Positions 8,940 to 29,263 are shown, counted from the stretch's first letter. The stretch is DNA of 64,000 nt from an uncultured Bdellovibrionales bacterium (GCA_964413875.1 CAYPUA010000007.1:45139-109138), one strand, 5' to 3'. Numbers and translations are program-made. Notes: a model not told the origin generated them from the letters alone.

Positions 8940-9398
8940 TTACCTATCGAGGGCTAGCTGACGCCTCGCCTCATACAGGGCTATGGCGACGGCGTTGCTG
9001 AGATTGAGACTGCGCACGTAGTCCGTAATGATGGGTATTCGCAGGATTTGGGACTCAGGGAATTGACCGAGGAAAGCCTGTCCTAGCCCCTTGGTTTCAC
9101 TTCCGAACACTAGGGCATCGGTGGGACCGAAAGCCGCATCGGTATAAAGCCGCTCTCCAAACTTCGAGAAAAGCCATATCTTCCCTGGTCTCGACTGAGA
9201 GATGTAATCCTCCCAAGACTTGTGCTGTGCCAGTTTCACGAAGGGCCAGTAGTCGAGGCCGGCACGGCGCACTGCTTTCTCCGTGATCTTAAAACCCATG
9301 GGTTCAATGAGGTGGAGAGGGGTGTCCGTAGCTGCGCACGTTCGGGCAATCGACCCGGTGTTTTGAGGTATTTGAGGCTCTACTAAAACTATCTCCAC
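8940..9398 (-). CDS. trmL: tRNA (cytidine34/uridine34-2'-O)-methyltransferase TrmL (SpoU family, short form).
   Basis: MEIVLVEPQIPQNTGSIARTCAATDTPLHLIEPMGF aligns with the E. coli TrmL N-terminus. 152 aa. GTG start. Confidence 0.8.
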   Translation of the reverse strand: MEIVLVEPQIPQNTGSIARTCAATDTPLHLIEPMGFKITEKAVRRAGLDYWPFVKLAQHKSWEDYISQSRPGKIWLFSKFGERLYTDAAFGPTDALVFGSETKGLGQAFLGQFPESQILRIPIITDYVRSLNLSNAVAIALYEARRQLALDR

Positions 9399-9497: not shown

Positions 9498-10271
9498 ATG
9501 TTGAACTCAACTGTAGTAGGCAGAATAGATGTGACTCCGGAGCTTATGATCCTCCGAGTTCGTCCGGATGATGGTGTTCCCAATTTTGTTCCGGGTCAGT
9601 ATGTGGCGCTGGGCATGCTAGGGGGGACGCCCCGATATCCGGGTGCGGCTCCAGAAGCAGAGGCTCCAGCCCCAGATAAATTAATTAAGCGGGCGTATTC
9701 CATCGGCTCGTCCCCGGAGCAGAGAGATTATCTAGAGTTCTACATAGCGGTTGTTCCGACGGGCATTCTCACTTCACGACTTGCAACGGCTAAGGAGGGA
9801 GATCGCGTATTTTGTCAGCCTAAGGTGACCGGAACTTTTACCCTTGATGGTGTTCCACCTGATAAAAATCTCGTGCTTGTCTCAACTGGCACTGGACTTG
9901 CGCCCTTTATGTCGATGGTTCGGACGTCAAGCACATGGTGCTCAAGTCGTCGAATAACTGTGATTCATGGAGTAAGATATCCGGAGGACTTCGCTTACTC
10001 TGATGAGCTGCGCCTACTCGAGACTTCCACGCAGAGCCTAGAATATCTTCCGATTGCCAGCCGGGCAGCGGAAACCTGGATAGGGCGAAAAGGGCGGGTC
10101 CAGAAGCTCTTCGACGATGGAACAGTGAAATTAAATCCCCAAATGGACCACGTTTTCCTCTGTGGAAACCCGGCCATGATAGAGGAGCTTGAGGTTAACC
10201 TCACGGAACAGGGCTTCCAAGTTCACTCCAAGAAGTCTCCGGGAAATCTCCACATAGAAAAGTATTGGTAA
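9498..10271 (+). CDS. fpr: Ferredoxin--NADP(+) reductase (FNR/Fpr family, FAD/NAD-binding).
   Basis: Motifs KRAYSIGSSP (RxYS FAD-binding) and VLVSTGTGLAPFMSMV (NAD(P)-binding). ~257 aa. Confidence 0.8.
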   Translation: MLNSTVVGRIDVTPELMILRVRPDDGVPNFVPGQYVALGMLGGTPRYPGAAPEAEAPAPDKLIKRAYSIGSSPEQRDYLEFYIAVVPTGILTSRLATAKEGDRVFCQPKVTGTFTLDGVPPDKNLVLVSTGTGLAPFMSMVRTSSTWCSSRRITVIHGVRYPEDFAYSDELRLLETSTQSLEYLPIASRAAETWIGRKGRVQKLFDDGTVKLNPQMDHVFLCGNPAMIEELEVNLTEQGFQVHSKKSPGNLHIEKYW

Positions 10272-10283
10272 GCGGTACTCGGT

Positions 10284-11267
10284 TTACGGGCCGTTTTGAA
10301 AGCTGTTGGCAGGGTGTCCCTTATTCGCCGAGGCGGGAGGATCGGAACCGCCGAACAGCAGGGGCAGGAAAGTCCCAGCAGGGAAACGAACCTTGCGATC
10401 TCCCTGCCGGTATCGGCGTGACGCGTCGATGTACTCCTGTAGGATCGAGAAGTACCAAGCTCGGTATTCGGCCCGTCTTTTGTGATCCACTGAGAGAATG
10501 CGGGGACGGTGCGAATATCGACTGCTGGTTTTCGTAGAGACCGGGAGCGAGCCGGGCTGGATAGTCAGAAGCCGGTCGCGCCCCATGAATGATAAACCCG
10601 CATTCAAACGGTCTGCGACGATTTTTTGTCGCCTCACTTCAAGCTTTTGCATCATCATCTTGGCGTAAGCAGCTTGCGACAGCTTCTCATAGCCCGGCAA
10701 TCGCTCATACTTCAGGGTGATGTAGTGCACGTAATCGTCGAAGCGAATAGACTTGTTGTATCGTTTTGCGGAATTGTACCCCGCCCAATCTACTACGGTA
10801 AATCTTCGTTTCATTCCCCAGATCGCATCTCGAAAGCAGTTGTACCCCGGGTAGTCGGAGAGCTGTTGGACTAGTCCATCCTTTACTGGCTGAAGAACTG
10901 TGTAGAAAAAGTACTCCTCAACATCCTCGGGCGCGGGCATCAGCTCAACAGAATAGCGACGTCCCCACAGAGGACCACCAGGGAAGTTCGGAACGAGGCG
11001 GCGGACGCTGCGGGCGATGCACGAATTTAGGTCACGCATGAAAGCCGCTCGGTTGAGGCCGGGGAAGTCCGCCACGCAATGCGTGTGATTGCCTTCGATG
11101 GCGAAGGCATAGAGCTTTATGTCGTAGCGGGCAGCAAACTTTCCCACGTAACCCAAAATCGCATTCTCGAGAGGTCGGTTATTTACGAACCAGAGCTCCG
11201 AATTGCGGCAGCGAGTCGTGATGAATGATGTCAGATCTGCAGTTTCTATTCTTGGATGATAACTCAT
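10284..11267 (-). mobile_element. IS200/IS605-type Y1 (HUH) transposase-domain protein, RAYT-like, with a ~200-aa C-terminal extension of unknown function. The likely start is MSYHPRIE.
   Basis: The N-terminal ~130 aa are collinear with IS200 TnpA: HPRIE, a HuH-like motif AIEGNHTHCV, and GPLWGRRYSVE. Local GC is visibly lower than the flanks. REP-like repeats lie on the flanks and nearby. Confidence 0.65.
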
Positions 11268-11346
11268 ACCCTCTAATTCGAGGGTCCCGCTCAGGAGTTG
11301 CGGGAGGCACCAGAAAGATAGCCCCAAAGTATCTTCGCAAAAATCT

Positions 11347-15398: not shown

Positions 15399-15800
15399 AT
15401 GACTAAGCAACCCTCCCGTCCAAACACATTTATTCACGTGGCTCAGGACCTAGAGGTCGCAGGACTGCTGTGGCACCCGGAGGTAGGAGACGAAGTTGCA
15501 GACCGAGAGGGTCGCAGCCCAATCGCAATCTTAGTGGACCCGCAGGGCATGACCCCTGATGAGCTGCGTTCCACATACCTGTGGCTGCCAACAGTGGAGC
15601 AGATCATCCTGCAGTTTGAGGCCCGACAGGCAGTGCTCTTTCATGCTGGCCTTGAGCTAAGTGACAGGCGCGTCTGCTACAAGACTGTGCTTCATGTCCA
15701 GAACGGCCACATCGAGTCGATGGCAGACTCCTTTAGAGTCTCGCTCGGTCTCGCCTTAAGAGACCTGCTAATCTCAGATGCTCCCACGATTGTGAATTAG
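15399..15800 (+). CDS. Hypothetical protein.
   Basis: 133-aa ORF preceded by a purine-rich ribosome-binding site GAGAAGGAAGAGAAG. No recognisable motifs. Confidence 0.4.
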   Translation: MTKQPSRPNTFIHVAQDLEVAGLLWHPEVGDEVADREGRSPIAILVDPQGMTPDELRSTYLWLPTVEQIILQFEARQAVLFHAGLELSDRRVCYKTVLHVQNGHIESMADSFRVSLGLALRDLLISDAPTIVN

Positions 15801-16141
15801 CGAGCCGCAGACGCGGGCTTGAGCTGCAATCATCTCCATTCATCGCTTTTGCTGTTGAGGAGCGCTGCACTCAATTATCAAAAAAATTCCGTTGTGGGCC
15901 AGCTTTCCGCGCAGCGCGTCTCACTCCAGTTCCGCACTACGCAACGAGTAGTGGCCGCAGCGGCCAATATCCGTACATGCAACGGCTCTCGCAACAGAGT
16001 CGATGCTCCCGCTGTCTCGGGGGAGGGTGTCAAAAATTTTTGTCCCAAATCCTCTAAGAGGCTGAAATGACGGCTAATGAAAGCCCAAAAAGAGATGAGC
16101 CCCTTTTTAAAAGTCAAGAATCTAACATGGAAAGCCGGAGA

Positions 16142-16157
16142 TGGTACGGACATTGCC
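16142..16157 (+). promoter_or_regulatory. Candidate sigma-54 (RpoN) -24/-12 promoter, TGGTACGGACATTGCC.
   Basis: Matches the TGGCACG-N4-TTGCW consensus, with the GG and GC dinucleotides at the correct 10-nt spacing. Lies ~140 bp upstream of the sigma-54 activator gene start. Confidence 0.5.
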
Positions 16158-16294
16158 AATTCCGTGACAGCGCTTCGTTGAGCTCAACCTCACGAGCGTG
16201 TGACTAAGGAAGGTTTCCGTCGGCCAGCGATCGGTCCCGCAGGGAAGTTTGACGTACGGGCGTCGCGTGTGGCTCAGGACTAAGGAAGGTTCAT

Positions 16295-17383
16295 ATGGTT
16301 TATTCAGCAGCATTCTCGGCCGTCGGTGACTCGTTGTCTTCGCTCTCGGCTCCCTCTCTCTCTCGTAGCTCCTCTCCAGCTCAGTTCCTCAACATTCTTA
16401 GTGCTTGTCCCGAGATGCAGAAAATCTTCGGGGTAGTCGAGAAAGTCGCAAAGACTCGCTCAACAGTGCTGATTCTCGGCGAGAGCGGCACGGGGAAAGA
16501 GTTGGTAGCGCGCGCGCTGCATTCCCTCAGCGCACGCTCCGGTCGGCTCGTTCCGGTCAACTGCGGAGCAATCCCAGAGGATATCCTTGAGAGCGAACTG
16601 TTTGGCCACGAGAAGGGCGCCTTCACTGGCGCAGTTGCAAGCCGAGTTGGCCGTTTTCAGCTCGCCGATGGAGGAACAATCTTCCTCGATGAGATCGGAG
16701 AGATGAGCCCGAAGCTCCAAGTCAAGCTACTTCGAGTGCTGCAAGAGCGCAAAGTTGACCCAGTCGGGTCAACAAAATCGATTGACGTAGACGTGCGAGT
16801 AATAGCAGCAACTAACAAAGACCTAGCTGAGGAAGTAAAAGCCGGCAGGTTCCGTGAAGATCTCTTCTACAGGCTTCAGGTCGTGCCGGTCAGCTTGCCG
16901 CCCCTCAGAGAGCGTTTCGGAGACATTCAGCTCCTTGCGGAGCACTTCCTCCGCCGGCAAGCCGATGAGCTTGCGAAGCCGACTCTTTTCTTCTCTGACT
17001 CAACTCTCAGCGTGCTTAACCAGTACTCCTGGCCTGGCAACATTCGAGAGCTTGAGAATCTGGTTGAGCGAGTCGCAATCTTGAGCGAGGACGGCCCAAT
17101 TGAGCCCTCTCAGCTTCCGCCGCACCTGAACGAAACCAGGACGGTTGCCCCAACACACATGGATGACATGACCCTTCCGCCAATGGGTGTGGATTTCAAC
17201 GCGCTAATCGAGGAGTACGAGAATCGATTGATCTCAACGGCGCTCAATCAGACGGGCGGCAACAAGAAAGCAGCCGCGAAGCTGCTCGGACTAAACCGAA
17301 CCACACTTGTTGAGAAGATCAAGAAGAAGGGGCTCGAGGCGAAAATTGAAGTGTGCATCATCTCGGATGAGTCAAACGCGTAA
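16295..17383 (+). CDS. Sigma-54-dependent transcriptional activator (AAA+ plus Fis-type HTH) lacking any N-terminal receiver or sensory domain.
   Basis: Walker [16 protein letters not shown]; GAFTGA motif ([15 protein letters not shown]); arginine finger region; C-terminal [19 protein letters not shown]. Only a ~40-aa Ser-rich N-terminus precedes the AAA+ domain. Strong AAGGAAGG ribosome-binding site before the ATG. Confidence 0.85.
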
Positions 17384-17392
17384 GGGACAACG

Positions 17393-18319
17393 ATGTGCAC
17401 TAAAGGCAAAATTCTGTTCACCGCGCTCGCACGATTTGTGGCTGTGGCAGCCAGCGTTTCGCTCGGCAGCATAGCTGCTCCGCGATCCGCTGTGGCTCAG
17501 CATCCAGTGGACGTACAGCGGCTCAACGCAGATGGGGAGCACCTCAAGGCCCTTGCGATGTACGAGCTGCTGCCAACTCGGGCTGTGACCGTTGAAGCGC
17601 GTATCGCCGCCGCCAAGAGCTCCTGGGCGCTCGGCCTCAACAGAAGAGCCGCAGATGCATTTGACGCTCTTTTGCGCGACCGCTCGCTGTCAGGGGATAC
17701 GCGGGCCCGGCTCACGCTGTCACGGGGTGTGATAGAGTTTCAGGAGGAGCGATACCCAGAGGCGTCGTTGTTTGCGGAGAAGGCAGTGTCGCTTCTCCCT
17801 GAGCCCTCACCACTCCGGAGCCGAGCGTACCTGCTGTGGGGCCAGAGTCTCTCCCGCTCAAACGCGTACAGCTCGGGAGTTGAGAAGCTAGAGGCAGCAC
17901 TCCAGGAGGCTTCAGCGGGCGACAAGCCAGAGATACACTTCGCGATCGGCGCAGCAGAGATTCGGCTCGGCAGGTTTTCTGACGCAGAGCGGCACCTCAA
18001 AGCTATCCCCACCGATCACGAACGGGCCCCCGCAACAGTTCGGCTGCTTGCGACTATCGCCCTGGAAACACACCAGGAGGACCGAGCACGTTTCTGGATA
18101 GAGAAGGGGCGGAAAGACTACCCAGAGGCATTCATCGACAGCTGGGGCAATTACGGGCTACTTCAAGCTGCGCTCTCCAAGGGCGAGATGCCAGCAGCTC
18201 GGGACGTCCTCTCGGAAGCACAGAAGCAGTATCCACCCTCTGATCCGTGGCTCATCCTGATGCAGGCGGCACTGGAGCAAGCTGAGTGGAAACGCGAGCT
18301 GGAGGCGCAGCGACCATGA
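17393..18319 (+). CDS. Secreted/periplasmic tetratricopeptide (TPR) repeat protein.
   Basis: Sec-type signal peptide (hydrophobic core then AVAQ) followed by Ala/Leu-rich TPR-like helical repeats. Confidence 0.65.
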   Translation: MCTKGKILFTALARFVAVAASVSLGSIAAPRSAVAQHPVDVQRLNADGEHLKALAMYELLPTRAVTVEARIAAAKSSWALGLNRRAADAFDALLRDRSLSGDTRARLTLSRGVIEFQEERYPEASLFAEKAVSLLPEPSPLRSRAYLLWGQSLSRSNAYSSGVEKLEAALQEASAGDKPEIHFAIGAAEIRLGRFSDAERHLKAIPTDHERAPATVRLLATIALETHQEDRARFWIEKGRKDYPEAFIDSWGNYGLLQAALSKGEMPAARDVLSEAQKQYPPSDPWLILMQAALEQAEWKRELEAQRP

Positions 18320-19164
18320 GATCTACCCAGCTCTCTCAGCTCAAGGCCCCAACTCCTCCCCAGTCTGCGACCGCTCTGGCTCAGATGATTGAGCGTTTCA
18401 ATGAGAGCAGCTCGCGACTCGAAGTTCAGCACGCAGCAATCTTGCAAGAGGTTGAAGACTTAAAAGCTAAACTCCAGCGCAAGGAAGAGGAAGTGAAGCG
18501 AGCCGAGCGCCTGTCAATGTTAGGAGAGACCGCCGCAGCGCTGGCGCACGAGGTGCGTAACCCGCTCGGAGCTATCACGCTCTTCCTCTCGATGCTGAAG
18601 AGCGATATCTCCGACCGGCCTGGCGCCCTCGCGTTAGCAGAGGAGATTGAGAAGAGCGTTTCAAGCCTTAATCACGTTGTCTCCAACGTCTTGCACTTTG
18701 CAAAGCACAACAAGCTCTCCCTGGGCCCGGTCAACCTGCACTCCGTACTGCAGGAGGTTCGGCACCATTTCACAAGTCTCTACGGCACCAAAGCAACAGT
18801 AGAGCTAAGCCTGAGCGGAGCGCCATTTATCATCGCTGATGATAACGCCCTCCGTCAGTGCCTCTACAACCTTATCACGAACTCACTGCAGATCACCTCG
18901 TTCGCTGGCACCATCAAGATCGACGCGTCTGACGATAGCGCATCGGATGGAGTCCGAATGGTGGTGTCAGACAACGGGCCAGGCATTGCCGAAGATGTCC
19001 TGCCCCGGATCTTTGAGCCATTCGCATCGGGGCGCCGTGAGGGCACTGGGCTGGGGCTGTCGATTGTAAGGAGAATTATCGAAGGACACGGCGGAGAGAT
19101 CACGGCCCGAAATGCGGCTGGAGCTGAATTCGTCATCGTCTTGCCGAGAAGAGGAAAAAAGTAA
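18316..19164 (+). CDS. Cytoplasmic sensor histidine kinase with a coiled-coil N-terminus and no transmembrane segment.
   Basis: H-box LAHEVRNPLGAI; N-box; G-boxes DNGPGI and GTGLGLSIV. Overlaps the end of the TPR gene. Confidence 0.8.
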   Translation: MRSTQLSQLKAPTPPQSATALAQMIERFNESSSRLEVQHAAILQEVEDLKAKLQRKEEEVKRAERLSMLGETAAALAHEVRNPLGAITLFLSMLKSDISDRPGALALAEEIEKSVSSLNHVVSNVLHFAKHNKLSLGPVNLHSVLQEVRHHFTSLYGTKATVELSLSGAPFIIADDNALRQCLYNLITNSLQITSFAGTIKIDASDDSASDGVRMVVSDNGPGIAEDVLPRIFEPFASGRREGTGLGLSIVRRIIEGHGGEITARNAAGAEFVIVLPRRGKK

Positions 19165-19174
19165 GGACAGGAGA

Positions 19175-20650
19175 ATGAGTATGGACCTTAACAACACGTC
19201 AAATGAGCGTCTGGCACAGCCATCCCCGGCGCGAATCCTCATCGCTGACGATGACCCACACATGCAGCTCGCGATCAGCACCTGCTTGTCTCGCAAAGAG
19301 TACGAGCTCGTGATCGCCCCTAATGGCGTTGTAGCCCTTGAGCACCTCGAAAAAGGGGGGTTCGACCTCGTGCTCACCGACCAGCAGATGCCGGAGATGT
19401 CAGGTCTTGAGCTTTTGGCAGCGATGCAGAAGCGAAACATGGAAACGCCAGTCATTATGATCACCGCCTACGGCACCATCAACCAGGCCGTAGAGGCGAT
19501 GCAGAAGGGCGCATCCGACTTCATCACGAAGCCGTTCTCGGCCCAGGACTTGGAGCGCACGGTAGAGAGATGCTTAACGCCAGAGGCGCGCGAGTCTCGA
19601 AAGAGCATGGCTCACCAGCGCGGCGGCCGTCCGATCGTCACCAACGATCCGCTGATGATCCGAGTCCTGGAAGTCGCAGAGGCAGTTGCCCGAAGCGAAG
19701 CAACGGTTCTGATCCAGGGAGAGTCAGGCACTGGCAAGGAGCTGATTGCGCGATTTGTCCATGCCAGCAGCCCGCGGGCCCAGCAGGCGTTTGTTGCAGT
19801 TAACTGTGCGGCCCTGCCGGCAAGCCTGCTCGAAAGCGAGCTCTTCGGACATGAGAAGGGCGCCTTCACAGGGGCGCAAGCCCGCAAGATCGGAAAATTC
19901 GAGCTCGCCCACGGCGGCACGATTCTCCTCGACGAAATTTCTGAGATGGATCTAGCGCTTCAGGCAAAGCTGCTGCGAGTTCTTCAAGAGCGAGAAGTTG
20001 ACCGAGTAGGAGGCAAGGATCCGGTCTCGATCGACGTCCGAGTTCTTGCGACCACGAACCGAGACCTTGAGGATAGCGTCCGGGAAGGGAAGTTTCGTTC
20101 AGACCTGTACTATCGCCTCAACGTGATCCCGCTAACGCTCCCACCGCTGCGTGAGCGCGCAGCAGACATTAAGCTTCTGACCGAGCACTTCATGCGCCAG
20201 TATCTCGGCGACAATGCCGGCTCGCTCCCCTCGGAGGTTCTCGACTCCCTGCTGCAGCACTCGTGGCCGGGCAACGTTCGAGAGCTGCAGAATGCCGTGC
20301 AGCGAGCTGCGATTCTGTGTCGTGGCGGAACCCCTCGCCAATCGGACTTCCTGCTCTCCATGAGCCCATCAGAGCAGCTAAGCACGATGCGCTCGGAGGC
20401 TCCGAAGGCACGAAGCATCCATGACATGGTCGAAAAAGTGGTTGAGCAGCCGGGAGCGATCAATGCTTCGGGCCTCATGATCCGCTCTGGCGTGACTGTT
20501 CACGACATGGAGAAGGCGCTGATCCTTGAGACGTTGCGCACCACAAACAACAACCGCACAGAGGCAGCTAAGTTGCTCGGGATTAGTATCCGAACCCTCC
20601 GCAACAAGCTGCACGAGTACCGGGGAACAAGCCCAGGAGCAGAGGAGTAA
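19175..20650 (+). CDS. NtrC-family sigma-54-dependent response regulator (REC plus AAA+ plus HTH).
   Basis: Receiver domain ILIADDDPHM...DLVLTDQQMP; AAA+ [15 protein letters not shown]; GAFTGA; HTH NRTEAAKLLGISIRTLRNKL. Ribosome-binding site AAGGACAGGAG before the ATG. Confidence 0.85.
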   Translation: MSMDLNNTSNERLAQPSPARILIADDDPHMQLAISTCLSRKEYELVIAPNGVVALEHLEKGGFDLVLTDQQMPEMSGLELLAAMQKRNMETPVIMITAYGTINQAVEAMQKGASDFITKPFSAQDLERTVERCLTPEARESRKSMAHQRGGRPIVTNDPLMIRVLEVAEAVARSEATVLIQGESGTGKELIARFVHASSPRAQQAFVAVNCAALPASLLESELFGHEKGAFTGAQARKIGKFELAHGGTILLDEISEMDLALQAKLLRVLQEREVDRVGGKDPVSIDVRVLATTNRDLEDSVREGKFRSDLYYRLNVIPLTLPPLRERAADIKLLTEHFMRQYLGDNAGSLPSEVLDSLLQHSWPGNVRELQNAVQRAAILCRGGTPRQSDFLLSMSPSEQLSTMRSEAPKARSIHDMVEKVVEQPGAINASGLMIRSGVTVHDMEKALILETLRTTNNNRTEAAKLLGISIRTLRNKLHEYRGTSPGAEE

Positions 20651-20664
20651 GAGCCTCTGGCTTC

Positions 20665-21933
20665 ATGCGATATGCGGGCTGGCACAGCTCGCATAGCAGT
20701 GCGAACATCGGGGAGGGCAAGCGTGGTAGCCAGCCTCTTTGGGAAATCGTTGTGAAGCGACAAGCGCGCGGCAAGCTGTTACAGTTTAGCATAGGCCTAG
20801 TCCTATCCTTAGGGCTTGCAGAAGTCTTGCTCCGGGCTCTCAGTGTCGTTACGGCAGATGGCGCGGTGTTTCTGTTTCGGGCGCCGTGTCTCCCGCTACA
20901 AATCCCAGTGGCGCAAGTGGAAGAGGCGTTGCGCCGGTACGAGAGCGACCCTGGGCTTGTCATTCAGTACGATGCGCAACTTGGATGGTCGCCGCGACCA
21001 GGTAGCGTGTCAGCGGATGGCATGTACCGGTACGCGAAGGACGGCTCCCGCGTTGGGCCTGACAGCGAGCCCTCGGGCAAGACGGGAAAAGCAGTCGCCC
21101 TGTTTGGTGACTCCACTATGCACGGCACTGGAGTGCCGTGGCAGGACTCGATTGGCGCGCGCCTGTCTGCGACAAGCCCTTACAACGTGAAAAACTTCGC
21201 CCTCGGAGCCTACGGGATGGACCAGGCGCTACTTCGGTGGCGCGCGGTCAAAGATGAAGCGAAGCCAGACGTAGTCGTATTCGGATTTCAGGCCGAGAAC
21301 GTCAAGCGCAATGGGTCCATCTTTCGAGCCTTTTACACCTACGAGACTGTAGACATCCCGTTCTCTAAACCTCGCTTCGAGCTCAACGGAGAAAAGCTAA
21401 TACCTGTTAATCTCCCGACACTGCCGGCCACAGAGATCGTTCCCGTGCTGCGTAACTTTCAGAGAAGTCCGCTACGTAACTATGACTATTTCTACCAGCC
21501 GGGGCTCTACAGAGATTCCCTCCTATTCCGCTCAAGGCTGCTCGCGTTTGCCTTTGGAGCAGTGTTGATGAACAACCAGTATGTTGTAGCGGCCAAAGAG
21601 GAGGCTGTGTACTCCCCTCAGGGTGAGCTCGGCATCCTTGCTTTAGCGATTATGCGAAGCTTCAAGCGCGAGGTGGAAGAGACAGGCGCGCGTTTTGTGG
21701 TGCTGCATCTACCCCGTCGGATAGCAGTTGAGGCTGCTATGAAAGGAGCGCCCCTGACCTACGAACAGCTTCTGTCGACCGTTCGAAATGAATTTGGCCT
21801 AATCGATCCGCTCCCAAGAATGACGCAGCTCGCAAAAGATGAAGGTGTAACCAAGCTCTACGTCGATCCGTGGCACTACTCGGAGGCCGGAGCTTCGGTG
21901 GTGGCCCGGGCACTTTCCCAGGAGTTGCAGTAG
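20665..21933 (+). CDS. Membrane-anchored SGNH/GDSL-like hydrolase or acyltransferase (AlgX/PatB-like fold). Function inferred weakly.
   Basis: N-terminal signal anchor; GDS block VALFGDSTMHGTG; C-terminal DxxH (VDPWHYS). Confidence 0.45.
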   Translation: MRYAGWHSSHSSANIGEGKRGSQPLWEIVVKRQARGKLLQFSIGLVLSLGLAEVLLRALSVVTADGAVFLFRAPCLPLQIPVAQVEEALRRYESDPGLVIQYDAQLGWSPRPGSVSADGMYRYAKDGSRVGPDSEPSGKTGKAVALFGDSTMHGTGVPWQDSIGARLSATSPYNVKNFALGAYGMDQALLRWRAVKDEAKPDVVVFGFQAENVKRNGSIFRAFYTYETVDIPFSKPRFELNGEKLIPVNLPTLPATEIVPVLRNFQRSPLRNYDYFYQPGLYRDSLLFRSRLLAFAFGAVLMNNQYVVAAKEEAVYSPQGELGILALAIMRSFKREVEETGARFVVLHLPRRIAVEAAMKGAPLTYEQLLSTVRNEFGLIDPLPRMTQLAKDEGVTKLYVDPWHYSEAGASVVARALSQELQ

Positions 21934-22054
21934 GATGCAACGCGACGCTGGAGCATACGCACGGGATTCGACCGACCAACAGAGTGCACATCGCGGGGCT
22001 CTTCAGTTGAAAGGAGGTCGGAACTGCGCTACTGAAGAGCAGAAGCGAAGCCGT

Positions 22055-22801
22055 ATGATGTTCAAAGATCACGAAAATTCCCCGTGGCGAGCGCGCATTC
22101 ATAAGGTAATCAGAGTGCTATCGTGGGCTGCAGGAGTGTGGGCCGCCTGCGTGCTGCTGCTCAGGTTTATAAATCCGCCAATCACTCCTCTGATTGCAAT
22201 TCGGGCGATGGAGTATCAGTGGCGTGGACAGAACGTAATAACACAGTGGGAGTGGGTGCCTCTCGACCAGATTCCGTTGACGGTGCAGCAGGCTGTCGTT
22301 GCCGCTGAGGATGCTCGGTACATGGAGCATTGGGGTATCGACTTGGCAGCCATGGGGGATGCAATCGAAGATTCGAGCGGTCGTAAGCGCCCGCGCGGTG
22401 CCAGCACCATAACTATGCAGACGGTAAAGAATGTATTTCTTTGGCCTGGACGGAGTTACCTAAGAAAGGGACTCGAGGCGCTAATGGCACCTGTCGTCGG
22501 CGTGTTATGGGGGAAACGGCGTACCTTAGAAATCTACCTTAATGTGATTGAATGGGGAGAGGGGGTATACGGTATTCAGGCGGCATCAAGACGATACTTC
22601 GGCCGACCTGTGAGCCAACTCACCCTCGCTCAAGGCGCCGCACTCGCGGCGGTCCTTCCATCTCCCAGGCGACTCTCTCCAAATAATTTATCCCCGGTCT
22701 CTAGACAGCGCTACGACCGCATCGTCAAAGAGGCCTACGCCGTGCCCCTCCCGACACACTTCTACGCGCGGCAGGCTGGAAGGCGTAGGGCCCGCTCATA
22801 A
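22055..22801 (+). CDS. mtgA: Monofunctional biosynthetic peptidoglycan transglycosylase MtgA (GT51). The ORF could alternatively start at 21935.
   Basis: GT51 motifs AAEDARYMEHWGID, RGASTITMQTVKNVFLW, RKGLEA, LEIYLNVIEWGEGVYGIQAASRRYF, collinear with E. coli MtgA (~249 aa from 22055). Confidence 0.8.
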   Translation: MMFKDHENSPWRARIHKVIRVLSWAAGVWAACVLLLRFINPPITPLIAIRAMEYQWRGQNVITQWEWVPLDQIPLTVQQAVVAAEDARYMEHWGIDLAAMGDAIEDSSGRKRPRGASTITMQTVKNVFLWPGRSYLRKGLEALMAPVVGVLWGKRRTLEIYLNVIEWGEGVYGIQAASRRYFGRPVSQLTLAQGAALAAVLPSPRRLSPNNLSPVSRQRYDRIVKEAYAVPLPTHFYARQAGRRRARS

Positions 22802-22856
22802 GGCCGGACCCGGGGCTGTCAAAGCTGCTGCTCTGGTCTGGTAGAGGGCCAAAAAA

Positions 22857-22886
22857 TTGACACCCATAAAAGGTGCAACCTATTGA
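22857..22886 (+). promoter_or_regulatory. Candidate sigma-70-type promoter upstream of flgB: TTGACA, an 18-bp spacer, then TATTGA.
   Basis: Consensus -35 hexamer with a plausible -10 in an AT-rich stretch, ~60 bp before the flgB ATG. Sequence match only. Confidence 0.3.
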
Positions 22887-22945
22887 AATAAATACCCTTC
22901 GGGCTAGTACGCTCCTTGCAAAACCGTCCCCCAGAGGTGGAACCT

Positions 22946-23356
22946 ATGAAGCTCTTAGACTCAATGTTTGACCGGACGGTGGGTGGCTTAACCCGCGCCA
23001 TGGACCTTACCTGGAAGCGTAACCAGGCGCTCACGTCGAACATCGCGAACGCCGAGACCCCGCAGTACCGCGCAGTCGATGTGAACTTCGGCAAGGAGCT
23101 CGACCGGGCTTTTGGAACCACCGCAGACACTGACTCTCTAACGAAGACTAACGCGGACCATCTCGATGTGTCGTCTAACGAGGGTGGCAAGTACTTCGCA
23201 GACGAGAGTGGCACCGAGAAGTCAGACGGAAACAACGTGGACCTTGATCTGCAGATGGGCCGACTGACTGAGAATAGCGCGGACTACATAAGTGCAGCAC
23301 GGCTAATCCGACGACAGATTGGGCTAGTGCGCACAGCGATACGTGAAGGGAGATAG
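22946..23356 (+). CDS. flgB: Flagellar basal-body rod protein FlgB.
   Basis: N-terminal rod motif LTSNIANAETPQYRA. ~136 aa. GAGGTGG ribosome-binding site. Confidence 0.85.
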   Translation: MKLLDSMFDRTVGGLTRAMDLTWKRNQALTSNIANAETPQYRAVDVNFGKELDRAFGTTADTDSLTKTNADHLDVSSNEGGKYFADESGTEKSDGNNVDLDLQMGRLTENSADYISAARLIRRQIGLVRTAIREGR

Positions 23357-24133: not shown

Positions 24134-25849
24134 GTGGCCCCATCCGTTGATCCGAAAGCGGTACTGTCGAGCCTTGTGGCCGGGTACCTAAAGCTCCCCC
24201 TCGCGCAGAAGGTTCTGTTTCCCTTCCTCGTCATCTTCTCAGTTGGCTCGATTGTGTACGTGTCGAAGCTGGCGACTCAGCCAGACTACACAGTCCTCTA
24301 CAGCGATCTGAGCTCAGGAGACGCCGCCGCAGTTGTTGAGCGGCTGAAAGAGGCACGGGCATCGTACCGCGTCGAAGGTGGAACGATCTCGGTGTCGCCC
24401 CCAGAGGCGGTGCACGAGCTTCGCCTGAGTCTCGCCTCAGAGGGCATTCCCAAAACGGGTAGCGTTGGTTTTGAGCTGTTTGACGGGACAAACTTTGCAA
24501 CGACGACCCTCGGCGAAATGGTCAAGAAACAGCGCGCTATCCAAGGCGAGCTGGAGCGCACTATCATGTCGCTCGATACGGTAGTTTCTGCGCGGGTCCA
24601 TATTTCGCAGCCGGAGAAGACAGTTTTTGCGAAGAGCGCCCAGGAGCCGTCGGCCTCAGTTCTTCTCAAGCTGCGCCCTGGCGCAGAGCTCGACAAGAAG
24701 CAGATTAGCGGCATATCCAACTTCGTTGCGAGCAGCGTTGAGGGCCTCAAGCCCCAGCACGTGACGATTATCGATATGTACGGCAACCTTCTCACGTCGG
24801 CAGAGCCAGAAGGGGGAGAGGGGCATCTCGGAGCGGACGCCGGCCGGCTCCTCTACATTCGCGAAGTTGAAAAGGGGTACGCGCAGCGTATCGAAGTTCT
24901 TCTCGCAAAAGTGCTCGGACCCGGCAGAGTTGTAGCGCGGGTAAACGCAGATATCGATTTCTCCTCAAGCGAGCGCGAGGAAGAGAGCTACGATCCTTCG
25001 GGGCAGGTAATTCGATCCGAAAGAACGGTGGAAGAGGGAGCAGCAGCCCAAGCTCGCGGAGGAATACCGGGCACGGTGTCCAACATCTCGAACGGTCCGC
25101 CCATCGTAAACCCTCCAGCCGGTGCACAGCAGCAGAATAATCGCTCAGAAAAGGTGAAGAACTTCGAAGTTTCGCGGGCAATCACGCGAAGCGCCCAAGC
25201 GCGCGGAAAGGTGGTTCGCCTCTCGGCAGGAGTTCTCGTTGACGGAAAGTACACCGAGATTTCACAGGTAGGCAGCGACGGCAAGCCAACAGGAAAGATG
25301 CTTAAGGAGTACACCCCGCTCACGCCAGAGATGATGTCGCAAGTCGAGGGCATCGTGAAGTCGGCCATCGGCTATGACACGAGCCGCGGAGACCTGGTAA
25401 CTGTGGAAAATGTTCCATTCTTCACGCCGGACGAGAGCCTTGCTGCTGAACTCGCCAAGGCCGATGACTCAGCCAAGTGGTATCGAATCGGCTCCATGGC
25501 AGTGCCAGTGTTGGCGCTGCTGCTCTTCGTGTTCGTGGTCTTACGGCCGATGGTTAAGTTCCTGACGAGCAGTTCGGACCCAGACGTTGACCTTGCACGA
25601 CTCCTCCCGTCGGAAGTCACCGATCTGGAGTCTCGTGCACAGGCGCCCGGGGGCCAACATGCGGCGGACAGCTCCGGGGCTGTTGGGGCCATCGAAGGGG
25701 GACGACGAGGCGGCGCTCTTGATCTGGAATCGTCGGTGGATCTTGAGCAGCTCGGAGAGATCATGGCCGAGAATTCCCGGCTTGTGAAGGAGAATCCGCA
25801 GCAGGCAGCGCTCTTGATTCGCTACTGGCTCAATGACGGGAGGCTCTAA
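24134..25849 (+). CDS. fliF: Flagellar M-ring protein FliF.
   Basis: 571 aa with two transmembrane segments flanking a large periplasmic YscJ/FliF domain, and a C-terminal cytoplasmic tail. Confidence 0.85.
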   Translation: MAPSVDPKAVLSSLVAGYLKLPLAQKVLFPFLVIFSVGSIVYVSKLATQPDYTVLYSDLSSGDAAAVVERLKEARASYRVEGGTISVSPPEAVHELRLSLASEGIPKTGSVGFELFDGTNFATTTLGEMVKKQRAIQGELERTIMSLDTVVSARVHISQPEKTVFAKSAQEPSASVLLKLRPGAELDKKQISGISNFVASSVEGLKPQHVTIIDMYGNLLTSAEPEGGEGHLGADAGRLLYIREVEKGYAQRIEVLLAKVLGPGRVVARVNADIDFSSSEREEESYDPSGQVIRSERTVEEGAAAQARGGIPGTVSNISNGPPIVNPPAGAQQQNNRSEKVKNFEVSRAITRSAQARGKVVRLSAGVLVDGKYTEISQVGSDGKPTGKMLKEYTPLTPEMMSQVEGIVKSAIGYDTSRGDLVTVENVPFFTPDESLAAELAKADDSAKWYRIGSMAVPVLALLLFVFVVLRPMVKFLTSSSDPDVDLARLLPSEVTDLESRAQAPGGQHAADSSGAVGAIEGGRRGGALDLESSVDLEQLGEIMAENSRLVKENPQQAALLIRYWLNDGRL

Positions 25850-25851
25850 CC

Positions 25852-26763
25852 GTGGAGCAGACAACTGACGCGCCGGAGGCTTTGGCTGCCGAAACAAAGT
25901 CGGAGACCCCGCGGCTTTCGGCCTATGCGCCAACTCCGTACGTCGATGAGCACTGGACTGTTCTTAATGCTGGAGAGGAGAGGCATGGATTCATGCCCCT
26001 TGAACTTTCAGCAGTGTCTGCATCTCTCCCGCAAGCTGATCCGATGTTTGAGGACTACACCAGTCAGGTAGCCGGGCGCTACGTAGTCGGCGAGCAGCTC
26101 GTGCGCGGCGGAAGAGGCGACAACGCGGGGCAGCGTGACGAGGGTGCAGCTTCCCGACATGGAGATTCGTTGCCAGAGCAAAGCTCAGCAGAGAGCCAAA
26201 ATGATGCTGATGTGATCGTTGTTGAAGCTTCTGGAATAGGAGCCGTTGAGCACGAGCGAGCGATAGCGGAGGCTCGAGCTGCGGCGCTGGCAGAAGGCAG
26301 GGAGGCTGCGCAGACAGATGCCAAGGCTCGTCTGGAGGCCCTTGAGGCCCGCTTCGCAGCTATGCTTGATGACCTCAAGACCCAGGTTGCAGAGAGCCTA
26401 GCAGCAGCAGAGGAGCGGGCCGCAGAGCTTGCTCTCTCTGTCGCGCGCAAGCTAATGGGAGCTGCCGCAGAATCGTCGCCTGAATACCTCAAGCCGCTGC
26501 TGAAGGAAGCGATCGCTGCGGCAGGAAACGCAGAGATCCGGCGAATCAAGGTTAGCCCAAAAGACTACGAGGCTCTCAAGGCTCTCCCAAGAGAGTCGCT
26601 CGGCGCCGGCAGCGCAGCGGGGTGGACCTTCGAGCCGGATGAGTCCATCCACATCGGGTGTGTCCTCGTCACAGCCGCTGGAGAGGTCGATTTCAATCTC
26701 GATAAGGCTTGGGAGCGAATTCGCAAGCAGGCCCTGCATCCGGTGGGAGCCACCGATGAGTAG
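25852..26763 (+). CDS. fliH: Flagellar assembly protein FliH (export ATPase regulator).
   Basis: Ala/Glu-rich coiled-coil centre; C-terminal FliH/YscL-like region RIKVSPKDYEAL...VTAAGEVDFNLDKAWERI. Lies immediately 5' of fliI. Confidence 0.7.
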   Translation: MEQTTDAPEALAAETKSETPRLSAYAPTPYVDEHWTVLNAGEERHGFMPLELSAVSASLPQADPMFEDYTSQVAGRYVVGEQLVRGGRGDNAGQRDEGAASRHGDSLPEQSSAESQNDADVIVVEASGIGAVEHERAIAEARAAALAEGREAAQTDAKARLEALEARFAAMLDDLKTQVAESLAAAEERAAELALSVARKLMGAAAESSPEYLKPLLKEAIAAAGNAEIRRIKVSPKDYEALKALPRESLGAGSAAGWTFEPDESIHIGCVLVTAAGEVDFNLDKAWERIRKQALHPVGATDE

Positions 26764-28069: not shown

Positions 28070-28501
28070 ATGAAGCGTTTCCGCTTTCGGCTTCAGCGAA
28101 TTCTCGATATCCGGGAACAGATTCGTGACGAGCTGCGTCAAGAACTTGTCCGAAAGAACCTCGCGAGGGACCACGAGCTGCGTGTTTTGGCAGAGTTAGA
28201 GGAGGAGTCGTTGCGTGTCATGATCCAGGAGGGTGGCACGTATTCTGCATCGGAGCTGGTGATGTTTGGCGACTACCGCCTACGGCTCAAGGTTCGTATC
28301 GAAGAGCAGCAAGTAAGGGTGTCTGTCGCCGTGCAGGAGGCTGACGAGGCGAAGGCTCGGTACGTAGAGGCGAGCAAAGAAGCCAAAGCTCTTGAGATGT
28401 TGCGGCAGAAGAGGAAAGCCGAGCACGATGAGCAGGCTCTCAAAGAAGAGGGAGCCCAGCTTGATGAGTTAGCGGTGCAGCGCGCACCGCGCCCGAGTTG
28501 A
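28070..28501 (+). CDS. fliJ: Flagellar export protein FliJ.
   Basis: ~143-aa all-helical coiled-coil protein (MKRFRFRLQRILDIRE...) directly after fliI. Confidence 0.7.
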   Translation: MKRFRFRLQRILDIREQIRDELRQELVRKNLARDHELRVLAELEEESLRVMIQEGGTYSASELVMFGDYRLRLKVRIEEQQVRVSVAVQEADEAKARYVEASKEAKALEMLRQKRKAEHDEQALKEEGAQLDELAVQRAPRPS

Positions 28502-28513
28502 GGATTACAAGGT

Positions 28514-29263
28514 ATGGCTGAGAAGCGATTGAGCAAGCAAGAGGCCCAGGATCTGTACGATAACTTGCAGCGTGCCGTCGGCACCATGATGGCTAAAGGC
28601 AAGGCTGCAGAGGCGAAAGCTGCGGCAGCGAAGACAGCAGCCCCGAAGGCGGCTCCGCGCCCAAAAGCCACTTCTTCGCCAGCCGCGTCGCCAGCGTTGC
28701 CAAGAGTTCGGCGCAGTCGTGGGCTCTCGGGAGAGGCTCTTGCGATTATGACAATCGCCGTCTTCTGTTGTGCCAAGGTAACGCTCTCTGCACTTGAGGC
28801 GAGTGGTATCGCGTCAGCTCCGCCAGCAGAAGCTGCTGTTGTTGCACAGCCGCGTGGGCCGCAGTGGAGCAAGGAGGAGGTAAAAGTCTTAACCGCGCTC
28901 GACTCACGCCGCGTGCAGCTCGAGGAGCGAGCCTCTCGGCTCGAGCAGCGTGAAACCGAGGCTGCCAGCCGAGACCGAGACCTTGCGGTCAAACTCACTG
29001 AGCTCAAGGACTTAACTGAGCGTCTTAAAGCTGAGCGTGAGAAGGGTGAGAAACAGCGCGACACGCAGCTCGATCAGCTTGCAAACGTATACGGCTCCAT
29101 GAATCCGCCCGAGGCTGCTCACCTGCTTGAGCAGCTCGACATCCAGGTCGCCCTCTCGCTCGTAGAGAGGATGCCTGAGAAGCGTATGGGGCAGATCCTC
29201 TCCCTCATGAATGCCCAGCGGGCCCTGGAGCTGACTAACCTGCTCTCGAAGCGTCGCTCATAG
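28514..29263 (+). CDS. MgtE_N-domain flagellar protein (B. subtilis YlxF/MotE-like), with a membrane anchor and coiled coil.
   Basis: C-terminal MgtE_N/FliG-like motif MNPPEAAHLLEQLD...ERMPEKRMGQILSLMNAQRA. Syntenic with ylxF, which follows fliJ in Bacillus fla/che operons. Confidence 0.5.
   Translation: MAEKRLSKQEAQDLYDNLQRAVGTMMAKGKAAEAKAAAAKTAAPKAAPRPKATSSPAASPALPRVRRSRGLSGEALAIMTIAVFCCAKVTLSALEASGIASAPPAEAAVVAQPRGPQWSKEEVKVLTALDSRRVQLEERASRLEQRETEAASRDRDLAVKLTELKDLTERLKAEREKGEKQRDTQLDQLANVYGSMNPPEAAHLLEQLDIQVALSLVERMPEKRMGQILSLMNAQRALELTNLLSKRRS

Follow-up and report, generated by a model that had tools for sequence, protein, structure and literature searches.

We analyzed a 64,000-nucleotide stretch of DNA (hereafter, the window; GCA_964413875.1 CAYPUA010000007.1:45139-109138) from an uncultured freshwater bacterium, in which four consecutive genes on the plus strand, spanning positions 16295 to 20650, encode a sigma-54 activator without a sensory domain, an exported protein with tetratricopeptide repeats (TPR), a histidine kinase located in the cytoplasm, and a response regulator of the NtrC type. 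On balance, we lean toward reading this four-gene cassette as the regulatory operon of a flagellar hierarchy, in which a FleQ-like activator is combined with a two-component system. The sigma-54 promoter that precedes the operon is, judging from its conservation in relatives, very probably real. The new features of the locus are this conserved sigma-54 promoter of the activator's own gene, the sharing of one operon with a TPR protein and a two-component system, and a 5' leader in which the motif AAGGAAGGTT occurs twice.

The sigma-54 promoter of the cassette

The -24/-12 element TGGTACGGACATTGCC (16142-16157, plus strand) was assigned to sigma-54 from its sequence match and from its conservation across orthologues. 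An earlier note on this DNA had drawn attention to its GG and GC dinucleotides at a 10-nt spacing, and this was confirmed: the GG lies at 16143-16144 and the GC at 16155-16156, with 10 nt between them, and the orthologous promoters keep the contact bases. Fourteen of the 16 consensus positions of TGGCACG-N4-TTGCW are matched, with two departures. Taken as a single sequence, the element has a match that these counts suggest to be weakly significant, as the degenerate pattern TGGYAYRNNNNTTGC occurred once in the window against an expectation of 0.16 and at least one match appeared in 16 of 100 shuffles. The significance of the element therefore derives from its conservation across orthologues and not from the lone match. 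It was conserved in the aligned intergenic region of five lineages, and TGGTA-N6-TTGCCA was invariant, at the same offset, in all 13 distinct promoters compared, a set made up of the leaders from a metagenome scan and the loci found through the protein, the window sequence included. The query for that scan of metagenome contigs was the upstream 16-mer GTCAAGAATCTAACAT followed by NGA alone, with no letters of the -24/-12 element, and the 25 loci that it returned comprised 14 orthologous leaders and 11 chance matches (~9 distinct lineages). Across the 13 promoters, the spacer bases, the flanks, and the 10 nt 5' of TGG varied freely; a site under constraint from sigma-54 contacts would be expected to show this combination of fixed contact bases and a free spacer. 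A more distant relative (L112, 60% identity) carries the more canonical TGGCATACCCCTTGCC (TGGCAT-N5-TTGCC) ~100 nt 5' of the start codon.

It is highly improbable that the match is unused, with transcription coming from an unrecognized sigma-70-type promoter or from read-through and the conserved bases serving another DNA-binding protein. Such a scenario is compatible with the weak significance of the lone match and with a C in place of A or T at position -11. However, TGG, A, and TTGC are fixed around the free spacer as sigma-54 contacts predict, the canonical form in L112 stands at the same place, and no sigma-70-like promoter was detectable in 15800-16295. The usual 12-nt distance to the GC would put the transcription start at ~16167-16169, a predicted position spanned by the invariant TGACAG (16165-16170, plus strand), and no convincing terminator was found inside the cassette.

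The sensor-less activator and its predicted binding sites

The first gene of the operon (16295-17383, plus strand) encodes a 362-aa sigma-54 activator in which an AAA+ domain with GAFTGA is followed by a Fis-type helix-turn-helix (HTH) with a FleQ-like recognition helix. Its only Pfam matches were Sigma54_activat (aa 36-199, E = 1.4e-70), AAA_lid_14, and HTH_8, and the Walker A, Walker B, and GAFTGA motifs of an enhancer-binding protein are all present, GAFTGA being invariant in the family. The Pfam search thus agreed with the earlier description of a protein devoid of receiver, GAF, PAS, and V4R domains, and the absence held family-wide: the precomputed Pfam list showed no N-terminal domain in the best 120 homologue clusters (64-96% identity; 303-474 aa, nearly all 322-407 aa), and variability was confined to the first 30-40 residues. 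The alternative of an upstream start encoding a receiver was also checked, and a longer N-terminus is excluded by an in-frame TGA at 16250-16252, 45 nt 5' of the activator start. The start itself, for which a ribosome-binding site had been put forward, is backed by an arrangement of AAGGAAGGTT and ATG that is conserved in relatives.

Whether the activator has "lost" a regulatory domain, as was also proposed, is a different matter, and such a loss is not demonstrable from its neighbors, which are mixed. When representatives were clustered at 50%, 25 of the nearest 60 matched Response_reg and one matched the FleQ N-terminal domain (PF06490), many of the remainder are shorter than 400 aa and so have no room for a receiver, and most of the 60 have a similar HTH. 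A scan of the genome collection with the activator was dominated by generic enhancer-binding proteins; nearly all of the 39 best loci encoded proteins with N-terminal domains and were rejected as orthologues.

Among solved structures, the activator scored best against ZraR, at 305 bits, and full-length FleQ, at 299 bits, and its alignment with FleQ extends through the HTH. The recognition helix aligns with FleQ RTTLVEKMRKYG, sharing the identical stretch RTTLVEK, and an LPxxGxD motif preceding the helix is common to both proteins. Control by cyclic di-GMP (c-di-GMP) as in FleQ was rejected, since the key contact residues are not conserved: R144 is replaced by L or is variable, N186 is replaced by A, and E330 is variable, with the two arginines (of R185 and R334) kept. 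Because the activator has an intact ATPase and GAFTGA and no input domain, its output is probably set by the amount made and not by a ligand or phosphorylation, and such dosage control would explain the elaborate conserved control region, which includes a distal block, a box next to the promoter, and a two-motif leader.

In the mechanism that we propose, sigma-54 RNA polymerase would bind 16142-16157 and start near 16168, giving one transcript for the sensor-less activator, the exported TPR protein, the cytoplasmic kinase, and the NtrC-type regulator. Through its FleQ-like helix, the activator may then bind boxes of the GTCA-N6-TGAC type, which is also how the proposed FleQ box GTCaNTAAAtTGAC is built (PMC6120874). 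From a box that precedes the sigma-54-like promoter of flgB by ~76 bp, it could turn on flgB-fliI, and a box at its own promoter would allow autoregulation of either sign.

The candidate site upstream of flgB is the palindrome GGGCCAAAAAATTGACAC (22846-22863, plus strand), the window version, with one mismatch, of GTGTCA-N6-TGACAC, at ~-76 from the flgB promoter. GTGTCA-N6-TGACAC is common to five lineages at this place, ~65-85 bp before TAGYAYR-N4-TTGCW, and the orthologous loci L081, L082, L085, and L106 each contain a single exact GTCA-N6-TGAC, which in every case lies at the flgB position. The promoter element that follows, TAGTACGCTCCTTGCA (22905-22920, plus strand), is conserved and sigma-54-like, with AG in place of GG. 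In L112, the corresponding element (9324-9338, AGGCAT..TTGCG) does contain GG, which supports a sigma-54 origin of the flgB promoter. As a separate observation, unrelated enhancer-binding-protein genes in six loci (L026, L027, L031, L037, L047, and L054; ~9806-9888) have GTCA-N6-TGAC ~110-190 nt before the AAA+ domain, where it probably falls inside coding sequence.

The candidate operator at the activator's own promoter is the invariant 16-mer GTCAAGAATCTAACAT (16113-16128, plus strand; ~-55 to -40), which sits 13 nt 5' of the -24/-12 element and has the form GTCA-AGAATC-TAAC. The 16-mer is identical across the 13 distinct promoters, for most of which it was itself the search key, and it is also invariant in five loci found independently through the protein; L112 matches 10 of its 16 bases at the same offset. 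This GTCA-N6-TAAC box fits autoregulation by a FleQ-like protein. The proposal of positive autoregulation or feed-forward control in the earlier note gains support in so far as a box one mismatch away from GTCA-N6-TGAC adjoins the promoter, although such a loop may be of either sign. Readings of the 16-mer as an IHF, sigma-70, or sigma-28 site were rejected, as inspection showed no fit and no site of the sigma-70 type could be detected. In other samples, five related contigs (L097, L098, L101, L107, and L108) share GTCAAGAATCTAACATGGAAG with no sigma-54 element after it, and these are probably one lineage matched by chance.

Farther upstream, the alignment revealed a conserved block, aaAaA..a..TGAg (16086-16099, plus strand; ~-82 to -69), and, across 12 upstream regions, a conserved distal block (15937-15977, plus strand; ~-231 to -191), a candidate enhancer or upstream activating sequence (UAS), within which a GTACA-N4-TGTAC-like dyad is found in most relatives. 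The distal block lends itself to another wiring of the same genes, the main alternative, which we consider less likely than the arrangement that we favor. The phosphorylated regulator, or a third activator, would act at the distal block to drive the promoter, like glnAp2-ntrBC, with the sensor-less activator as an output and the 16-mer as a repressor or architectural site. The dyad does lie at an enhancer-typical distance, the two activators of the cassette have different recognition helices, and an enhancer at -55 to -40 would lie closer to the polymerase than is usual; moreover, the master regulator in Pseudomonas and Vibrio is not itself sigma-54-dependent, and sigma-54 promoters drive the downstream tiers (PMC7064773). 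In contrast, the window retains the dyad poorly (GGCCAATATCCGTACA) and shows no enrichment of it elsewhere, the proximal box has a FleQ-type half-site, and sites of action close to or downstream of the promoter are known for FleQ (PMC6120874). Just upstream of this control region, a conserved open reading frame (ORF) linked to the cassette (15399-15800, plus strand) encodes a clade-specific, dsRBD-like protein of 133 aa with no assigned function.

In all relatives, the 5' leader measures 113-147 nt, and the only two exact copies of AAGGAAGGTT in the 64 kb both lie within it. The second copy (16282-16291, plus strand) is the ribosome-binding site and, in several relatives, is placed in the loop of a GAAC/GUUC hairpin. 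The first (16206-16215, plus strand), of which the core AAGGTT is kept in relatives, is followed by no start codon; a small upstream ORF after it was rejected, there being no conserved start codon. With nine of its 10 positions, ACAAGGAAGG follows the CsrA/Rsm consensus A/UCANGGANGU/A, and leaders controlled by CsrA/RsmA, such as those of flagellin mRNAs under CsrA-FliW, likewise contain two GGA-containing motifs, one over the ribosome-binding site, with a short hairpin loop here in several relatives. However, no consensus RNA fold was found here, RNAalifold giving no shared RNA pairs, and the leader showed no unusual stability, its minimum free energy not being below that of shuffles (z = +1.15). 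Rfam gave no match in the 495-nt intergenic region, and csrA had no match in the window or in the relatives' loci collected. Alternatively, the first motif could be a DNA site for the response regulator, placed downstream of the promoter, by analogy with DVU1063. The most elaborate version of the control scheme would have a master activator without a sensor governed solely by its own expression, through a sigma-54 loop via the proximal operator and translational gating of the twin-GGA leader by CsrA or the 133-aa protein, with the co-translated TPR protein and kinase feeding envelope or assembly status back; we regard this full scheme as unlikely.

The TPR protein, the two-component system, and the flagellar neighborhood

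The second gene (17393-18319, plus strand) encodes an exported, periplasmic TPR protein. In every lineage, its N-terminus consists of a variable hydrophobic stretch and a conserved signal-peptidase site, AxA followed by (Q/E/D)H, and the TPR protein of distant relatives has an equivalent signal peptide. Being exported, the protein is unlikely to be a direct controller of the cytoplasmic activator. The conserved signal peptide led us to reject a role as a cytoplasmic anti-activator, and the suggestion that the activator is controlled in trans by the TPR protein was not borne out. The kinase gene (18316-19164, plus strand) has its true start at 18316, overlapping the TPR stop codon as ATGA, and its product combines a coiled-coil N-terminus with HisKA and HATPase_c and has no transmembrane or hydrophobic segment. 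The NtrC-type response regulator (19175-20650, plus strand; true start 19175 or 19181) carries a receiver (REC), an AAA+ domain with GAFTGA, and an HTH; it is 47% identical to the first activator, and the recognition helices of the two differ. Domain content therefore confirmed the series of a signal-peptide TPR protein, a cytoplasmic kinase, and an NtrC-type regulator after the activator, with the starts corrected. No solved relatives of the TPR protein and no informative matches for the kinase were found.

As in flagellar two-component systems, a cytoplasmic kinase and an NtrC-type regulator are encoded here with flgB adjacent. Cytoplasmic flagellar kinases sense the assembly of the MS-ring and the export apparatus (PMC7064773). 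By analogy with FlgSR, FlrBC, and FleSR, the kinase and regulator of the cassette may report this assembly and activate later sigma-54 flagellar genes.

The order activator-TPR-kinase-regulator is kept in contigs from relatives at 96, 79, 74, 73, 72, 65, and 60% identity. The position of the cassette next to the flagellar cluster, pointed out in the earlier note, is likewise conserved in most lineages, as flgB follows mtgA in the window, L081/L082, L083, L085, L106, and the P0055 locus; L112 has an unannotated 131-aa ORF in the flgB position. In the window, the flagellar series begins with flgB (22947-23356, plus strand; true ATG 22947), the first gene of flgB-flgC-fliE-fliF-fliH-fliI-fliJ, after which comes an FlbB/YlxF-like gene. 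The mtgA and flgB-flgC-fliE-fliF order downstream of the regulator was thus as described before, apart from the flgB start.

Several observations weigh against the flagellar reading with a FleQ-like activator at its head. The AAA+ domain is at best marginally closer to FleQ than to ZraR, NtrC-type proteins, or FlrC, and a search with the HTH alone found FleQ at E = 2.6e-5, no better than a Fis-like protein. The boxes depart from the model, the window flgB box having GCCA instead of GTCA (one mismatch) and the box at the activator's own promoter having TAAC, not TGAC, in one half-site; a robust FleQ consensus was, in addition, not confirmed by a published genome-wide study (PMC6120874). At the position of the GG that sigma-54 promoters almost always have, the flgB element of five closer-clade lineages has AG. 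The kinase and regulator fall short of the equivalog cut-offs of FlgS and FlgR (89 vs 600 bits and 353 vs 750 bits, respectively), and the AtoS/AtoC models outscore those of FlgS/FlgR, all of them below their cut-offs. The gene rpoN was not among the window ORFs scanned, and its presence in the genome is implied solely by the two sigma-54 activators. Finally, in two lineages, L086 and the P0120 locus, no flagellar genes adjoin the cassette.

The last of these points bears on the possibility of a non-flagellar cassette devoted to another envelope function, for example a PrsT/PrsK/PrsR-like exopolysaccharide/PEP-CTERM system, with the flgB position incidental. The best NCBIfam match of the TPR protein is indeed PrsT (E = 8e-7), both activators match the PEP-CTERM response-regulator model, and mtgA and an SGNH-like gene follow the cassette here. 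These scores, however, are far below the curated cut-offs (27 vs 312 bits for the TPR protein and PrsT; 346 and 365 vs 503 bits for the activators), the kinase has no membrane segments, and no exosortase or PEP-CTERM genes occurred among the window ORFs scanned. Given also the adjacency of flgB in the six cases named above and the FleQ-type box upstream of it, we judge a non-flagellar role to be quite improbable and retain the flagellar interpretation.

Two genes separate the regulator from flgB in the window. The first (20665-21933, plus strand) is a lineage-specific ORF that is absent in several relatives; it had been called SGNH-like, and although the ORF is present, its identity depends on a weak GDSL/SGNH similarity (GDSL_2, E = 1e-4) below the Pfam cut-off. 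The second (21935-22801, plus strand) encodes an mtgA-like monofunctional peptidoglycan transglycosylase, and in all lineages whose cassette adjoins flgB, a gene of this kind is retained between flgB and the regulator. Within the flagellar series, fliF (24134-25849) and fliH (25852-26763) are direct neighbors in that order and fliG is absent between them, an arrangement shared by L081, L083, L085, and the P0055 locus, and fliG must therefore lie elsewhere. The sequence TGGCACGTATTCTGCA (28234-28249), one mismatch from the sigma-54 consensus, is located inside fliJ (28070-28501) and upstream of the FlbB/YlxF-like MgtE_N gene (28514-29263), where it may have arisen by chance or may act as an internal promoter.

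Elsewhere in the window, a 347-aa ORF on the minus strand (10284-11327) has a weak IS200-like Y1 transposase match (E = 5e-6); its position is occupied in relatives, by an ORF with the same weak match in L083 and by one with no match on record in L081. In a 59% relative (L113, 8001-16857; GCA_036689865.1), the sensor-less activator is followed by a TPR protein of 909 aa with a signal peptide and then by a second activator with no Pfam receiver match, and a hybrid dCache kinase is found further on. This arrangement indicates that the activator and the TPR protein were already paired before the four-gene cassette arose. With respect to the host, the nearest labeled relatives of its adenylosuccinate synthetase are metagenome-assembled genomes (MAGs) of Deltaproteobacteria, Bdellovibrionales, and Oligoflexia (56-59% identity), and on this sequence evidence the host can be placed in an uncultured lineage with affinity to Bdellovibrionota and Oligoflexia.

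Relation to known systems and meaning

A receiver-less activator is not new in itself, as PspF, HrpR/S, FleT, and DVU2894 are known. PspF is checked by PspA, HrpR/HrpS by HrpV, and FleT works with FleQ; like the window activator, these proteins consist of an AAA+ domain, with or without an HTH, and no sensory domain, and their activity is set in trans or by partner oligomerization. The window activator scored 286 bits in the PspF model against a cut-off of 444 bits, and neither psp genes nor a pspA-like or hrpV-like gene was found near it. FleT has no HTH, whereas the window activator has one.

The systems headed by FleQ in Pseudomonas and FlrA in Vibrio, with FleSR and FlrBC, share with the window the sigma-54-dependent two-tier logic and the order activator-kinase-regulator, as well as the RTTLVEK stretch of the recognition helix and the GTCA-N6-TGAC form of the box. 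They differ in that FleQ and FlrA carry an N-terminal REC-like domain (PF06490), which FleQ needs in order to be active and to bind FleN stably, whereas the window activator has no domain before aa 36. FleQ/FlrA systems have no inserted TPR gene, unlike the window, in which a periplasmic TPR gene lies between activator and kinase, and FleQ and FlrA are needed for a separate two-component operon, whereas the window genes share one sigma-54 promoter. The placing of flgB and fliF in one operon is a further difference from these systems. The analogy with the FleQ/FlrA two-tier hierarchy drawn in the earlier note consequently stands in part: the RTTLVEK stretch and the boxes at flgB and next to the activator's own promoter support it, and the missed FlgS/FlgR cut-offs and the missing FleQ N-terminal domain do not.

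The closest counterpart is DVU2894 of Desulfovibrio vulgaris Hildenborough, an activator that has no N-terminal domain and falls into one group with FlrA/FleQ (Kazakov et al. 2015, PMC4641369). It is co-expressed with flagellar genes and predicted to be flagellar and autoregulated through yGTCA-N6-TGACr, and a similar GTCA-N6-TGGC is found in the FlrA-bound flrBC promoter (PMC4641369). Compared here by its published description and motif rather than by sequence alignment, DVU2894 resembles the window activator in lacking an N-terminal domain, in being FlrA/FleQ-like and predicted flagellar, and in its proposed self-regulation, and its motif is built like the box found upstream of flgB and, apart from one mismatch, like that at the activator's own promoter. 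It differs in having GAFTHA where the window activator has GAFTGA. No conserved sigma-54 promoter was found near DVU2894 (PMC4641369), whereas that of the window is conserved in 13 promoters; furthermore, DVU2894 is listed with its own gene as a target, separate from the flagellar response regulator DVU1063, whereas the window activator shares its operon with a TPR protein, a kinase, and the response regulator. The locus is thus a variant of the predicted DVU2894-like design and not a new system.

With this locus, the computational prediction made for DVU2894 reaches a second lineage, a distant one, and the flgB box supports it independently. Although the organism is uncultured, a heterologous host would allow the conserved cis-elements (the enhancer-like block, the operator, and the leader motifs) to be tested. 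The dependence of a sigma-54 promoter on an activator raises the question of how such an operon starts up when none has yet been made. If the proposed reading is true, the cassette would represent a compact flagellar hierarchy, in which both tiers and a periplasmic partner are expressed from one sigma-54 promoter and the top activator is governed by dosage and not by a sensory domain.

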